Virus record (IMG/VR): IMGVR_UViG_3300043436_004224
Length of the DNA stretch: 55,691 bases
Reading direction: 5' to 3' (one strand)
Source of the DNA: an uncultured virus (IMG/VR IMGVR_UViG_3300043436_004224)
Lineage: Duplodnaviria; Heunggongvirae; Uroviricota; Caudoviricetes
Position 1 is the first letter of the stretch. Each line of letters starts with the position of its first letter. Shown here piece by piece: positions 2,239 through 9,198 of this stretch. The notes beneath the pieces are model-generated. The model searched no databases, was not told the origin of the DNA, and saw only the letters and a list, made by a program, of their open reading frames with translations. Both the position numbers and the translations under genes were made by a program.

Positions 2239-2247
2239 TGGTAAAAT
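2239..2247 (+). promoter_or_regulatory. Extended -10 promoter for the NlpC/P60 transcript
   Basis: TGGTAAAAT (TGn-TAAAAT) 5 nt before the first leader hairpin. Confidence 0.6.
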
Positions 2248-2252
2248 ATTAA

Positions 2253-2409
2253 CCGGAGAGCACGTTCTTTCAATAAAAGGAAGGATGTGCTTTTTGGCAT
2301 CTCTGGACATTTTGTGTTAGAGTGCAACCCACAACTGAATATGGAAAGAAAACCAAATAGAACACTAAACGACCGAGTACTAAAGTATTCACTTCTGAAA
2401 GGTAGGTCG
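2253..2409 (+). ncRNA. Putative structured cis-regulatory 5' leader RNA
   Basis: 19-bp stem with 6 G-U pairs, a second hairpin, and a three-way junction covering the RBS. Confidence 0.55.
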
Positions 2410-2413
2410 CTAA

Positions 2414-3166
2414 ATGCATAAGAGGTTCATTTCAATAAGTGCGATAGCACTAGTAATGACTGGCTCCACCGCAGCGTTCGGACAGATGTTAGAGTCCACC
2501 ACCGCTGCGTCAGAACAAACATTAGTAACACAAGTAACAAAACCGGCTGAAATAATTGATTCTCCTGTACAAAAGGTAGAAATTGTTTCCGGCCCTGCTG
2601 TATCACCCGAGATTGCTGCGGGCCCTGTCCTAAAGTCAAGCGCACCGATCATTGGGTCGTACGACTGGATGGCCCAGGAAAAAGCTGCAAAAGAAGCTCT
2701 CATGTCTGATGCTGAAAAAGTGCAAGCAGAACTAGAGGCAGAAATTGCTCGGCTAGAAAAAATCGCCTCTGACACCAAAGCCCTAAACGAGGCTCTTGTC
2801 TTGGTTAAAAAACAAATTGGCATCACCCCTTGGGTTTTTCAGGGGTCAAGCCCCCGCGCCTGGGACTGCTCGGGTCTTGTAAAATGGACCTACGCCCAGC
2901 TTGGGATAGACCTGTATCACAGTGCCACATGGCAAAGATACTGGGGCGAGATTGTAGCCGAACCTAAAATTGGAGACCTAGTGTCTTTCAATTACAAAAA
3001 CTACTCAAGCGCCTACCATATTGGGATCTACGTTGGTCCTGATGAGATGATCCACGCTGGCGGTAAGCCAGGAGATAGGGCCGAAATAATCTCTATCAGC
3101 GAATGGGCAAAAGACAATTCGAATAGTGAAGTCATCTACACCCGACTAATTGAAACTAACAACTAG
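2414..3166 (+). CDS. Secreted NlpC/P60 (C40) peptidoglycan endopeptidase
   Basis: N-terminal signal peptide, coiled coil, DCSGLV catalytic Cys, HIGIY and IHA His motifs. Confidence 0.9.
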   Translation: MHKRFISISAIALVMTGSTAAFGQMLESTTAASEQTLVTQVTKPAEIIDSPVQKVEIVSGPAVSPEIAAGPVLKSSAPIIGSYDWMAQEKAAKEALMSDAEKVQAELEAEIARLEKIASDTKALNEALVLVKKQIGITPWVFQGSSPRAWDCSGLVKWTYAQLGIDLYHSATWQRYWGEIVAEPKIGDLVSFNYKNYSSAYHIGIYVGPDEMIHAGGKPGDRAEIISISEWAKDNSNSEVIYTRLIETNN

Positions 3167-3173
3167 TTAGGAC

Positions 3174-3208
3174 GAGAGGCCCCTCCTTCGGGAGGGGTTT
3201 TTCTCTTT
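3174..3208 (+). terminator. Intrinsic terminator
   Basis: GGCCCCTCC-TTCG-GGAGGGGTT hairpin with T tail. Confidence 0.9.
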
Positions 3209-4100: not shown

Positions 4101-4384
4101 GCCCCAACCACACTAAAACTCTGACTGTGTTCGGGTCAGATGATTTGAGAGACGCTTTACCGCAGAGCGGCGTTTTTGATATGCTCGACTGCGAAGTAGA
4201 GCTATTGTGCCCGCCCACAGCGCCAACATCAGAAATCGAAAAAATGGTAAATATTATAGAATCGATGATCAATGTAACAGACGTTAGGGTTACCGGAGTC
4301 CCTCGCTTTGAGGATGAGCAGACTTACAAAATAACAATCCAAAATGTACCCCTAGAGGTTGCAAGAGGAAGAAAAAAAGGATAA
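4097..4384 (+). CDS. Hypothetical protein
   Basis: 95 aa ORF, translationally coupled start. Confidence 0.65.
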   Translation: MSPNHTKTLTVFGSDDLRDALPQSGVFDMLDCEVELLCPPTAPTSEIEKMVNIIESMINVTDVRVTGVPRFEDEQTYKITIQNVPLEVARGRKKG

Positions 4385-4397
4385 GGTATTGACCACA

Positions 4398-4952
4398 ATG
4401 ACGAATACAAAATACGTAAAGAAAAACCAGCAAGTCCCGAAGCACATAGCTGACTTTTTTAAGGCTACGACAGACGCCCCTACTCGAGACTACTTAATCC
4501 GAGAGTTGTGTTACAAGCATTGGACCTATGAAGCAGTAGCTACTGCCTGCGGGATTACCCGCGAGCGAGTTCGCCAGATATATACTTCTGAACCAGTGAC
4601 TGGCTATATGCCGATCCCATTCGAAATTCCAGAGCCACCTCTAAGACCGGAGCGTTCTAAGCCGGTATACATCGAGCCAACCCCAGCTACGCTAAAGCGT
4701 CTACTAGAGCTTCAGCCCTATGCCCAGCTGGTGCGATCAAATGGAAAAGCTTACCGAGAGGAAGCCGAGGAGTATACCAAGCTGCTCAACTATGCCCACA
4801 CTGTAGAAGGCGTGACCCTATATCGTCTAGCAAAACGTCTTGGCGTAACTCATGGTGCATTGCGTTTCCGCCTTGTACGCTACGGCTACAAAAAGCCAGT
4901 AACAGCAACATCAAAGGTCTACAACCCGATTCTTAAAGAAAATAGAATTTAA
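4398..4952 (+). CDS. DNA-binding protein with two HTH motifs (first is sigma-70 region 4-like)
   Basis: WTYEAVATACGITRERVRQI and GVTLYRLAKRLGVTHGALRFRL; ATG 4398 is the likelier start. Confidence 0.8.
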   Translation: MTNTKYVKKNQQVPKHIADFFKATTDAPTRDYLIRELCYKHWTYEAVATACGITRERVRQIYTSEPVTGYMPIPFEIPEPPLRPERSKPVYIEPTPATLKRLLELQPYAQLVRSNGKAYREEAEEYTKLLNYAHTVEGVTLYRLAKRLGVTHGALRFRLVRYGYKKPVTATSKVYNPILKENRI

Positions 4953-5350: not shown

Positions 5351-6760
5351 ATGGGTAAAAGTCTTATGGAGCAGCTAGCTCTTCTTTCTGAAGAAGAGCG
5401 TTTAGAGGCGCTCTCAGATATTGATCCAGATTCTCTTATATGGGATTGGACTGTCTGGGCTCGCCCGGAGCAGGTAGCCCCGCCGGGAGTTGATTGGAAC
5501 ATCTGGCTTGTTATGGCAGGTCGTGGTTTTGGTAAGACCCGACTAGCGGCAGAATGGGTTCGCGAACAGGCAAAGTACACAAACACCGGACAGCGACGTT
5601 TTGCACTTGTTGCCCGTACCGCAGCCGACGTACGCGACGTTATTGTTGAAGGTGAGTCGGGAATTATTAACGTATCCGCTCCCTCCGAGAGACCTCTCTA
5701 CGAACCTTCAAAGCGTCGCCTAACTTGGCCTAACGGAAACACTGCCACGCTATTTACCGCGGATGAGCCTGACGGTTTGCGTGGTCCTCAGTTCACTCAC
5801 GCATGGGGTGATGAGATTGCTGCTTGGAGGCAGACCCCTGACGCTGCAGGTATGACCGCCTTTGATAACCTCCGAGTTGGTACTCGTCTTGGTGCAAACC
5901 CGCAGATGGTCGTGACTACCACCCCCAAGCGTGTTCCGCTTCTATACAAACTTATTGAAGAGTCCAGAACTGACAAAGGTAACGTAATTATTACCAAGGG
6001 TTCTACCATGGACAACGCTGGAAACCTTTCGGCCTCATATCTTGACACTATTACCGGCGTTTACGAAGGTACAACTCTTGCACGCCAGGAGCTTTATGGA
6101 GAGATGCTAGAGGACCTCGAAGGATCTATGTGGAACGAAGAGATGGTTGAAGAAGCTAGACATGCTATGTACCCATTCTCCACTCCTCTAAGAGTGATTG
6201 GAGTGGACCCTTCTGTTGCTGAAAACCCTCGCGATGAGTGTGGAATTGTAGTTGTTGCATCTACTGCAGATTACGATCTATATAAGCGCGAAGCTTGGGT
6301 GCTAGAAGACGCGTCTGTCCTTGGATCCCCAGATACTTGGGCACGTAAAGTCGTTGAGATGGCACGCAAGTGGGGCTGCCCAGTTGTAGCCGAAGTAAAC
6401 CAAGGTGGAGCCCTAGTTAGAAACGCAATTCTTTCAATCGACCCGACTATTAAAGTTCTAGAAGTCCACTCAAAGCACGGTAAGCAGCTCCGCGCTGAGC
6501 CAATCGTCCTTGCTTACGAGCAAAAGCGCGTTCATCACGTTGGATATCTCCAAGATTTAGAGTCTCAAATGTATTCTTGGATTCCTGGAGAAGGAAAATC
6601 TCCTGACCGTATCGATGCACTAGTTCACGCACTTACTGCTTTGCTAATTAAACCACCACCAGGATTTAGTGGAGGAAAAATTAGAGCAAAATCCCTCAGC
6701 GACCGTAAAATACCGGGAGTATCGCCCTCTAGAAGCTCAAAAATATTTAGGGTCAGATAG
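5351..6760 (+). CDS. terL: Terminase large subunit
   Basis: Walker A GRGFGKT, LRGPQF...WGDE Walker B region, TTTP coupling motif, nuclease GVDP and DRIDA motifs. Confidence 0.95.
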   Translation: MGKSLMEQLALLSEEERLEALSDIDPDSLIWDWTVWARPEQVAPPGVDWNIWLVMAGRGFGKTRLAAEWVREQAKYTNTGQRRFALVARTAADVRDVIVEGESGIINVSAPSERPLYEPSKRRLTWPNGNTATLFTADEPDGLRGPQFTHAWGDEIAAWRQTPDAAGMTAFDNLRVGTRLGANPQMVVTTTPKRVPLLYKLIEESRTDKGNVIITKGSTMDNAGNLSASYLDTITGVYEGTTLARQELYGEMLEDLEGSMWNEEMVEEARHAMYPFSTPLRVIGVDPSVAENPRDECGIVVVASTADYDLYKREAWVLEDASVLGSPDTWARKVVEMARKWGCPVVAEVNQGGALVRNAILSIDPTIKVLEVHSKHGKQLRAEPIVLAYEQKRVHHVGYLQDLESQMYSWIPGEGKSPDRIDALVHALTALLIKPPPGFSGGKIRAKSLSDRKIPGVSPSRSSKIFRVR

Positions 6761-7449: not shown

Positions 7450-9198
7450 TTGGGTATTTTTAAGAAAGAGCCTCAGAAGCAAACTAGAACATCTAGTGGT
7501 GCTCCTCGCGCGACTGCTCCAAAGAATGCAACCAGAGTTGCCCCTGGAGTTTCTATAGACTCTTTTGGAGTCGTCTACGCCGAAGCACAAAACTTCAACA
7601 CACCTAGACCTCTTACTGCTGCCGCGGCTCAGGTAAATCTAAATGACAAAGGTGAAGCAGAGCAGTTTAAATCTCGTAGACAATCAGCATCTTCATCTTG
7701 GCAGACAGAGGCCTGGGAATACTACGATGCTATCGGAGAAGTTAAATATGCTTTCAACCTAGTTGCGTCTGTTGTTTCTCGTATTCGTCTGTACGCAGCT
7801 GCAGTCCAAAATCCAGCTGAAGCCCCAGCTCCAATTCTTTCTGTAGACAAAGTGGATGAGAGACTAGCTGCCGCTGCACAACGCGCACTAGAAAGACTAG
7901 ATTCCGCATTCGGTGGTCAGGCAGGTCTTTTGAAAGACGCTGCACTAAATCTTCAAGTGACTGGTGAGTGCTACTTAGTTCAGATGCCAGAGAGACTTGG
8001 ATCGGGTCTTCCAGAAAGCTGGGACATTCGTTCAGTTGATGAGCTTCAGGTTGACTCTAAAGGCAACTACGTAATTAATCAGAGTAGAGACGTCGGTAAT
8101 GGAAATAGCATGATGTCTTCTCGCAATAATAAAGACATAATTAAACTTCCAAATTCTGCGTTTGTCGGAAGAATTTGGCGAGCACACCCTCGCTACACGC
8201 AAGAGTCGGACTCTTCACTACGCGGTCTACTAGATCTTTGCGCTGAGCTACTACTTCTAAACCGCACCTTCCGTGCAACTGCACGTTCACGCTTGAACGC
8301 TGGTGCTCTTTACTTGCCAGACGGTCTTTCAGTAGCTGCGTCTCCAGACCCAGACTACCCATACGACGAAGACGGTAACTACAACGAGCAGTACAACCCG
8401 GAAGAGTCCGCTGACGACTTCGAAGATCAGCTAATCGACGCGATGACTACTCCGATTAAGGATGAGGACTCAGCGTCTGCTGTTGTTCCACTGATTATTC
8501 GTGGTCCTGCAGAACTTGGTGACAAGATTAAGCAGTTCAAGTTCGAGCGTTCATTCGATCCAGCGCTTTCTGAAAGAAGCGACCGCGTACTAGAGCGAAT
8601 CATGCAGGGTCTAGACGTTCCTAAGGACGTTGTAACTGGCCTAGCAAACGTTAAGTACTCTAACGCTCTACAGATTGACGAAGCACTCTACAAGGCACAC
8701 ATCGAGCCTCTAATGCTTTTGATTGTTGACGCTCTTACTGTTATGTACTTGCGCCCATATCTAATTGCTAACGGCTACCCAGAAGAACAAGTAAAAAACA
8801 TTTGCGTTTGGTATGACCCGTCTCTAGTTGCTACCCGCAATGACCGCGCAGCTGATGCTGACTCTGGTTTTGAAAAGATGGCAGTTAGCTATGACACATG
8901 GCGCAGAGCTCATGGATTCTCCGAGTCCGATGCCCCAGACCCAACCGAGTTTGCACTAAGACTTGTACTACAAAAGGGAATGATCACACCTGAGCTTACA
9001 GAGTCTATGCTCGCTAGTATTTCTCCAGAAATAATGGGAAAGATTAGAGATCAGGCTATGCAAAATAGCGGAGCAGCTATTCCGCCCGAAATTGACCAAA
9101 TTCTTAGCGGAGATACAGTCTCTCCAACGCCGGAAGCAGATGCTGCCGAAGCTCCACCAGCCGAGCCCGCGGCACCACTAGCAGAACCAGAGGTATAG
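7450..9198 (+). CDS. Portal protein
   Basis: 582 aa, downstream of terL; EAWEYYDAIGE, RIWRAHPR and GLDVP motifs typical of actinophage portals. Confidence 0.85.
   Translation: MGIFKKEPQKQTRTSSGAPRATAPKNATRVAPGVSIDSFGVVYAEAQNFNTPRPLTAAAAQVNLNDKGEAEQFKSRRQSASSSWQTEAWEYYDAIGEVKYAFNLVASVVSRIRLYAAAVQNPAEAPAPILSVDKVDERLAAAAQRALERLDSAFGGQAGLLKDAALNLQVTGECYLVQMPERLGSGLPESWDIRSVDELQVDSKGNYVINQSRDVGNGNSMMSSRNNKDIIKLPNSAFVGRIWRAHPRYTQESDSSLRGLLDLCAELLLLNRTFRATARSRLNAGALYLPDGLSVAASPDPDYPYDEDGNYNEQYNPEESADDFEDQLIDAMTTPIKDEDSASAVVPLIIRGPAELGDKIKQFKFERSFDPALSERSDRVLERIMQGLDVPKDVVTGLANVKYSNALQIDEALYKAHIEPLMLLIVDALTVMYLRPYLIANGYPEEQVKNICVWYDPSLVATRNDRAADADSGFEKMAVSYDTWRRAHGFSESDAPDPTEFALRLVLQKGMITPELTESMLASISPEIMGKIRDQAMQNSGAAIPPEIDQILSGDTVSPTPEADAAEAPPAEPAAPLAEPEV

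Follow-up and report, generated by a model that had tools for sequence, protein, structure and literature searches.

An apparently uncatalogued structured RNA in the leader of a phage NlpC/P60 hydrolase gene

In Actinobacteria, the 5′ UTRs of NlpC/P60-type cell-wall hydrolase genes can carry the c-di-AMP riboswitch class ydaO/yuaA (RF00379); 12 of 15 such loci fetched here had an ORF with the DCS[G/A] motif. The ydaO fold consists of two three-way junctions and a pseudoknot. Phage lysis genes use plainer structures, such as the stems of T4 gene e and of the sdi element of lambda S, which occlude the Shine-Dalgarno (SD) sequence and are released by a late promoter or by dual starts. Nearest in kind to the leader described here are the lysM-Actino, lysM-TM7, lysM-Prevotella and M23 motifs, conserved structured RNAs in potential 5′ UTRs of cell-wall enzyme genes; as far as the sections of Weinberg 2017 (PMC5737381) used here go, their ligand is unknown and no c-di-AMP binding was seen. 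Two modules from other RNAs also come into the comparison. One is loop E of 5S rRNA, the bL25 site, which is made up of two isosteric submotifs, the submotif being a common structural block according to the part of PMC2952876 drawn on; the portion of PMC4408793 available describes no obvious loop E mimicry in the E. coli rplY operator. The other is the UAA/GAN loop, an A-stack that forms long-range A-minor modules (Lee, Gutell and Russell 2006, via an excerpt of PMC12550061).

The leader lies in a stretch of 55,691 nucleotides (the window) that is part of one 128,478-base actinophage virus record, and the features of the leader and its gene are all on the plus strand. The genes for the terminase large subunit (5351-6760) and portal (7450-9198) are both located past the leader/NlpC region. 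Among annotated phage records, the best terminase matches are Actinomycetia phage DSL-LC01 (73%), whose predicted host is an actinomycete in the part of PMC10611076 used here, and Microbacterium phages (61-64%). Positions 2414-3166 encode an NlpC/P60 peptidoglycan endopeptidase of 250 amino acids (PF00877, E 4e-17) with the catalytic residues Cys152 and His202; WDCSG and H202 are invariant in 46 homologues. To the eye, its N-terminus is signal-peptide-like, and the enzyme is provisionally read as secreted. An intrinsic terminator called by a terminator scan at 3174-3203 closes the single-gene unit. A preliminary description of this DNA had pointed to the cis-RNA control of actinobacterial cell-wall hydrolase genes; the gene here is phage-borne and not chromosomal.

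The core of the leader is a rod of about 40 nt at 2370-2409, recognized from alignments and covariation, with a predicted register for its non-canonical part. It begins with outer stem P1 (2370-2374/2405-2409), followed by a putative RAG/GUA loop-E-like module (2375-2377/2402-2404), a 2-nt bulge and a C2380-G2401 pair, a likely UAA/GAAA loop (2381-2383/2397-2400), and inner stem P2 (2384-2385/2395-2396), which carries a variable loop. Covariation argues for both stems. Stem P1 is 100% paired on 88 sequences, with two-sided change at three of its five pairs and compensation in several lineages; further variants have the outermost pair changed (L449) or one pair deleted (L492). The first pair of stem P2 adjoins UAA and GAAA on their inner side and was left out of every search pattern. 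It is canonical in 117 of 117 records (C-G 84, A-U 23, G-U 8, G-C 2), and a FastTree built from a short alignment of the catalytic domain, with many forks unresolved, requires it to have changed at least 22 times. Under a looser parse, the same pair is canonical in 59 of 61 cores and C-A in two. Where the core has a four-base loop, it is GNRA in 23 of 26 cases. The outer stem over the ribosome-binding site (RBS) and the RNA-level selection proposed earlier are thus borne out by compensatory changes, the kind of covariation-supported structure expected of a cis-regulatory RNA. The predicted fold of region 2239-2430 is also more stable than expected by chance (z -3.04), being matched by 2 of 200 shuffles.

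The middle of the rod can be drawn in more than one way. As a Watson-Crick helix it is 92.6% paired, without any two-sided change and with the outer pair broken in 14 of 59 cores. As RAG/GUA, a 2-base bulge, a C-G pair and UAA/GAAA, the variable letters land in the bulge, and rare variants appear to fit: the G.G becomes G-C in L693, and the R and A partners of one pair are lost jointly in L463 and L664/L667. As in loop E, RAG would stand opposite GUA beside a helix, and the G-to-U variant matches the other 5S submotif; the same GAG/GUA and GAU/GUA blocks occur in loop E of fetched actinobacterial 5S rRNAs. The difference is that only one submotif is present here, with the bulge and UAA/GAAA after it. 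The latter lies between two canonical pairs, as in UAA/GAN loops; CUAA is present in 59 of 61 cores (CT-M-A being set by the parse), and the flanking inner pair is canonical in as many. UAA/GAN loops are known from rRNA, RNase P and introns in the literature excerpted above, whereas this one overlaps the SD. At the level of sequence, the near-invariant internal loops resemble loop-E and UAA/GAN modules, and their geometry is a prediction.

Two other arrangements were considered for the same letters. A sarcin-ricin-type register (AGUA/GAA) conflicts with the covariation of stem P1 and is broken in 31 of 117 records. The three-way junction originally drawn across 2370-2409 is indeed the minimum-energy fold of the single sequence (-9.6 versus -5.9 for the rod, canonical pairs only), but homologues do not support it as a conserved fold. 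Of 59 distinct cores, 8 are able to form the first inner helix and 3 to form both; in alignment A5 the inner helices are 66% and 54% paired versus 98% for the outer stem. In six further loci, which keep stem P1 and the SD, an A-rich stretch and an additional, covarying hairpin take the place of the inner loop.

Homologous leaders were gathered by protein search and with several DNA patterns that differed in which part of the motif was unconstrained. The 48 loci found by protein comprise 36 with the full core, three with the outer stem only and a canonical SD, seven with another leader, and two that are uninformative. A flank-only pattern, in which just box B (see below) and the outer stem were fixed, gave at least 119 matches; among the matches listed, 96 precede an NlpC-type ORF and keep the inner module in 94 cases, and the module occurs in 1 of the 23 that do not precede such an ORF. 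In the core 3′ strand, the two positions that the pattern did not constrain are UA in 104 of 104 matches of the metagenome scan. The loop letters stay near-invariant although the hydrolase proteins drop to 27-42% identity. Since the 65 loci have upstream genes from 21 different clusters, the motif travels with, or belongs to, the hydrolase gene. It is conserved, it covaries and it is strictly linked to one gene class, consistently on the 5′ side and whatever the upstream gene, as expected of a cis-regulatory motif. The cis placement over the RBS of the NlpC/P60 gene, as first described, is supported, and a position upstream of a cell-wall hydrolase gene is shared with the ydaO class. In one locus (L127, also L409), the 5′ half of the leader is fused to mid-gene, so that the SD and signal peptide are naturally deleted.

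A search of Rfam 15 gave no gathering-level match for the window, including the leader, and nothing but tRNAs on sets of 20 and 7 related loci; scans by E-value returned chance-level matches only, with none to RF00379 at E up to 10. The best Rfam match was the Listeria rliE hairpin (19.3 bits against a gathering score of 90, E 0.3), which has a loop like that of hairpin 1 (see below) and was treated as chance. A literature search found nothing on this motif. In the portion of Fremin 2023 (PMC10690425) used here, none of the cis candidates is consistently upstream of NLPC_P60, the table has two candidates with a single NLPC_P60 neighbour each, and an unnamed listing in the alignments is possible. 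With covariation present and Rfam silent, the early suggestion of a new motif gains support, and, judged from sequence comparison, the leader can be regarded as a real phage motif that belongs to a known kind of cis-regulatory RNA and is apparently uncatalogued.

Membership of the ydaO class, which had been raised from the gene context, does not hold up. The RF00379 model has 134 positions and real copies span 143-189 nt, against a phage-borne rod of about 40 nt; the conserved G-run and C-rich blocks seen by eye in nine fetched copies are absent from this leader. The lysM and M23 motifs belong to another gene family and host range, while this one is found on phage-type contigs only and lacks an Rfam match. 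As with the lysis-gene hairpins, RNA structure would limit the translation of a cell-wall-related phage gene, but here the entire structure is downstream of the predicted promoters and includes non-canonical modules that are conserved. The leader adds a well-supported, uncatalogued motif to the short list of orphan cell-wall-enzyme leaders.

The genome of this phage carries one copy of the motif. A pattern scan of all species genomes gave 12 matches, one of them real (L373) and the other 11 chance; L373 is a contig that was binned with an actinobacterium and has the gene order of this phage. Searches of 141, 141 and 146 genomes with model R1 returned the L373 contig only, plus weak matches at E 0.03-0.36, and with about 43 candidates scored per genome this result means "not found" rather than "absent". 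DSL-LC01 gave no model R1 match and is not among the organisms matching the NlpC query, and blastn of the leader against cultured phages produced nothing meaningful. From these searches, the motif, which is kept by a family of freshwater phages, seems confined to phage-type contigs from aquatic metagenomes and was not found in the bacterial genomes searched.

Transcription of the leader could begin at any of three predicted promoters. P0, a sigma-A-type promoter at 2202-2230 (TTGACA-17-TAGGGT), is a consensus match kept in close relatives. The extended -10 at 2239-2247 (TGnTAnnnT) is present just as first reported and is found before hairpin 1 in most homologues; it would define promoter P1, with a start at about 2253-2254. 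The second hairpin of the preliminary description (2298-2324) exists and is weak (-5.6), and its 3′ arm (2315-2323) matches the TG-extended -10 of a putative promoter P2. Because these letters read as a promoter hexamer, the hairpin is probably mostly promoter, with transcripts starting at about 2330. A start there would lie past both 5′ hairpins, the situation that the preliminary description named as counting against its reading, and transcripts from 2239-2247 would include both. RNA-library contigs from four studies cover 2300-2540, 2287-2437, 2322-2537 and 2349-2505; they are strandless and startless, make up small shares, could reflect DNA carry-over and are given no weight as evidence.

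At or near the predicted transcript start is a conserved, single-stranded box A (AYAACUKAAUA, 2331-2341), found in 127 of 160 leaders and, allowing up to one mismatch, once in this genome. TAnnnT ends 5-9 nt before box A in 84 of the 127; the spacing is 6-7 bases in 64 of those 84, and TG is present in 61. Alignments show an A/C-rich, unstructured linker at 2342-2369 that ends in box B (2362-2370) and may serve ribosomes as a standby or enhancer site. In 16S rRNA, nothing strongly complementary to either box or to the hairpin-1 loop was found. Pairing of box A with a GUAUUC insert was rejected, as it occurs in one clade only and shows no compensation.

Hairpin 1 (2253-2297) is an optional, 5′-terminal element backed by strong covariation. 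Its 19-bp stem (2253-2271/2279-2297), with six G-U pairs and a T5 run (2291-2295) as originally noted, has a folding energy of -25.1 kcal/mol, and its loop is an invariant C-(AMUAAAA)-G that repeats the CAMUAAA word of box B. A pattern for the hairpin gave 33 matches, of which 26 precede the core and hydrolase and generally come directly after a -10 box; six of the others have poor folds, and the last (L498) is a strong hairpin that stands in a different context. The apical three pairs are canonical in 63 of 69 cells versus a shuffled mean of 33 and maximum of 48, and the stem is 94% paired, the loop and lower stem being set by the search pattern in 19 of 23 rows. A U-run of 4-6 in the 3′ arm occurs in 22 of 23, is partly imposed by the pattern and can pair with 5′ purines; the terminator scan made no call. 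The hairpin is present in 29 of 160 leaders, and as 17 of these have no -10 adjoining box A, the mRNA there must read through it. It could be either a 5′-end stabiliser, a role on which the unrelated 5′ hairpins of other lineages also bear, or an attenuator with a protein-read loop. The L498 hairpin (L498:522-558) has the same CAAUAAAAG loop and U-run as hairpin 1 and does not precede an NlpC gene; the two may belong to a wider terminator-loop motif.

The 3′ strand of the core is itself an extended SD (2397-2407) with one bulged U. Its duplex with the fetched actinobacterial 16S tail has an energy of -11.8 kcal/mol, the second strongest of 77 starts, and much of the conservation of this strand is explained by the SD alone. 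Opening the RBS would cost 6.0 kcal/mol, ranking 43 of 77 (median 6.5) in a crude ORF set and counting nearest-neighbour terms only, so that any non-canonical stability is outside this figure. Such an average cost, combined with a very strong SD, means that repression may be slight. No conserved anti-sequestering helix or alternative "on" fold was seen among the homologous cores.

The reading tentatively preferred here, at somewhat less than even confidence, is that the core controls translation and is recognized by a conserved partner, which is probably a protein. The mRNA would start at a host sigma-A-type promoter and run through box A and the A/C-rich linker, after which the short rod would fold, its 5-bp outer stem and stacked non-canonical modules, often with a GNRA cap, holding the purine-rich SD and presumably keeping initiation low. 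A partner that evolves slowly, probably an RNA-binding protein of the host or the phage, would then recognize the invariant loop surfaces and clamp or release the RBS. Against this stands the plain Watson-Crick register of the middle, which also fits most sequences. Moreover, the modules must be dispensable in some phages because 3 of 48 loci keep only stem P1 and 7 of 48 have another leader.

The same ten loci lend weight to a simpler alternative, which is possible but rather less probable, namely that the rod is a passive brake on initiation for a secreted hydrolase that is toxic, perhaps a brake adjusted by temperature or Mg2+, with the modules a way to fold a purine-rich SD and with no partner at all. 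The unrelated leader of the seven can also pair with the SD, small-genome actinobacteria have a short conserved leader of their own before the NlpC/P60 gene, and the loop-E submotif is a common block, as noted above for PMC2952876. However, an RBS could be damped in this way by many sequences, whereas genes that have diverged widely share nearly the same loop letters; the predicted pairing also hardly differs between 10 and 37 °C.

A more elaborate reading would be a phage-only riboswitch or rRNA-mimic operator, in which a loop-E and UAA/GAN rod of about 40 nt senses a host metabolite, an ion or a free ribosomal protein (for example, bL25) and times the secreted wall hydrolase, one lineage adding a protein-gated attenuator hairpin upstream. 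This is speculative and, on present evidence, unlikely. A somewhat slimmer chance is given to a small rod-shaped riboswitch that acts as an OFF switch, a metabolite or ion in the internal loops locking the SD. A compact fold whose conserved internal loops overlap the SD would suit such a role, as would the riboswitch control of NlpC-type genes in relatives (the ydaO loci counted above). On the other hand, apart from one phage-type contig it was not found in the bacterial genomes searched, only about 20 conserved letters are unpaired, many of them SD, and the analogous lysM and M23 motifs are without c-di-AMP binding in the cited sections of PMC5737381.

Less plausible again is a translation enhancer or ribosome-docking module, in which the A-rich boxes and the UAA/GAN A-stack aid ribosome loading instead of blocking it. 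The very strong SD at average opening cost and the long-range A-minor contacts of UAA/GAN loops (PMC12550061, as excerpted) are consistent with this idea, but compensatory changes keep the 3′ half of the SD paired, which would be costly for an enhancer. A degenerate ydaO riboswitch is very improbable: it shares the gene class of ydaO targets and short words only, model R1 matches none of five ydaO loci, size, conserved blocks and the RF00379 search speak against it, and the 25 small genomes nearest the L373 bin have neither ydaO nor a DAC gene (12 and 13 of 16 larger relatives have them; other small actinobacterial genomes carry DisA, found in 95 of 146 in the phylum sample), a lack that is relevant to c-di-AMP only if these phages infect those bacteria, for which a single binned contig is the basis.

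If a ligand or host protein does bind the putative control element, it would show a phage coupling wall remodelling to the state of its host, and the size of the motif suits direct probing, pull-down and reporter assays. A second, unrelated conserved leader precedes close NlpC/P60 homologues in 14 loci, about 110 nt before the start. In it, a variable hairpin is flanked by the conserved blocks UGUC(U)GCC and AACAAC, and a 5′ CUAY stretch can pair with the SD, possibly as a pseudoknot. It gave no model R1 match in eight loci and no Rfam match in six. In small-genome actinobacteria of one genus that are without ydaO (L381, L622-L640), a short conserved leader between the -10 box and a UUG start overlaps the SD; its folds are weak and inconsistent, and seven loci had no Rfam match. 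The occurrence of three unrelated leaders, two from phages and one bacterial, over the RBS of such genes suggests that NlpC/P60 translation generally has to be restrained.

Other parts of the window contain features of possible interest. The ORF at 1676-2194, which precedes the leader in 12 of 65 loci, has a helix-turn-helix-like stretch and no Pfam or PHROG match, and the ORF at 4359-4952, with another such stretch, matches Sigma70_r4. A crude 5-kb count showed no evident block poor in restriction sites. On one 124-kb contig, the NlpC gene and its leader occur twice, near each end (L113 and L139), which suggests that the gene lies in a long terminal repeat. In the window itself, about 740 bases (935-1675) have no ORF of at least 70 amino acids and contain several C and G runs. 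Terminator-like hairpins occur near 301-340 and 955-985, and the 935-1675 region is possibly a terminal-repeat junction or an origin.
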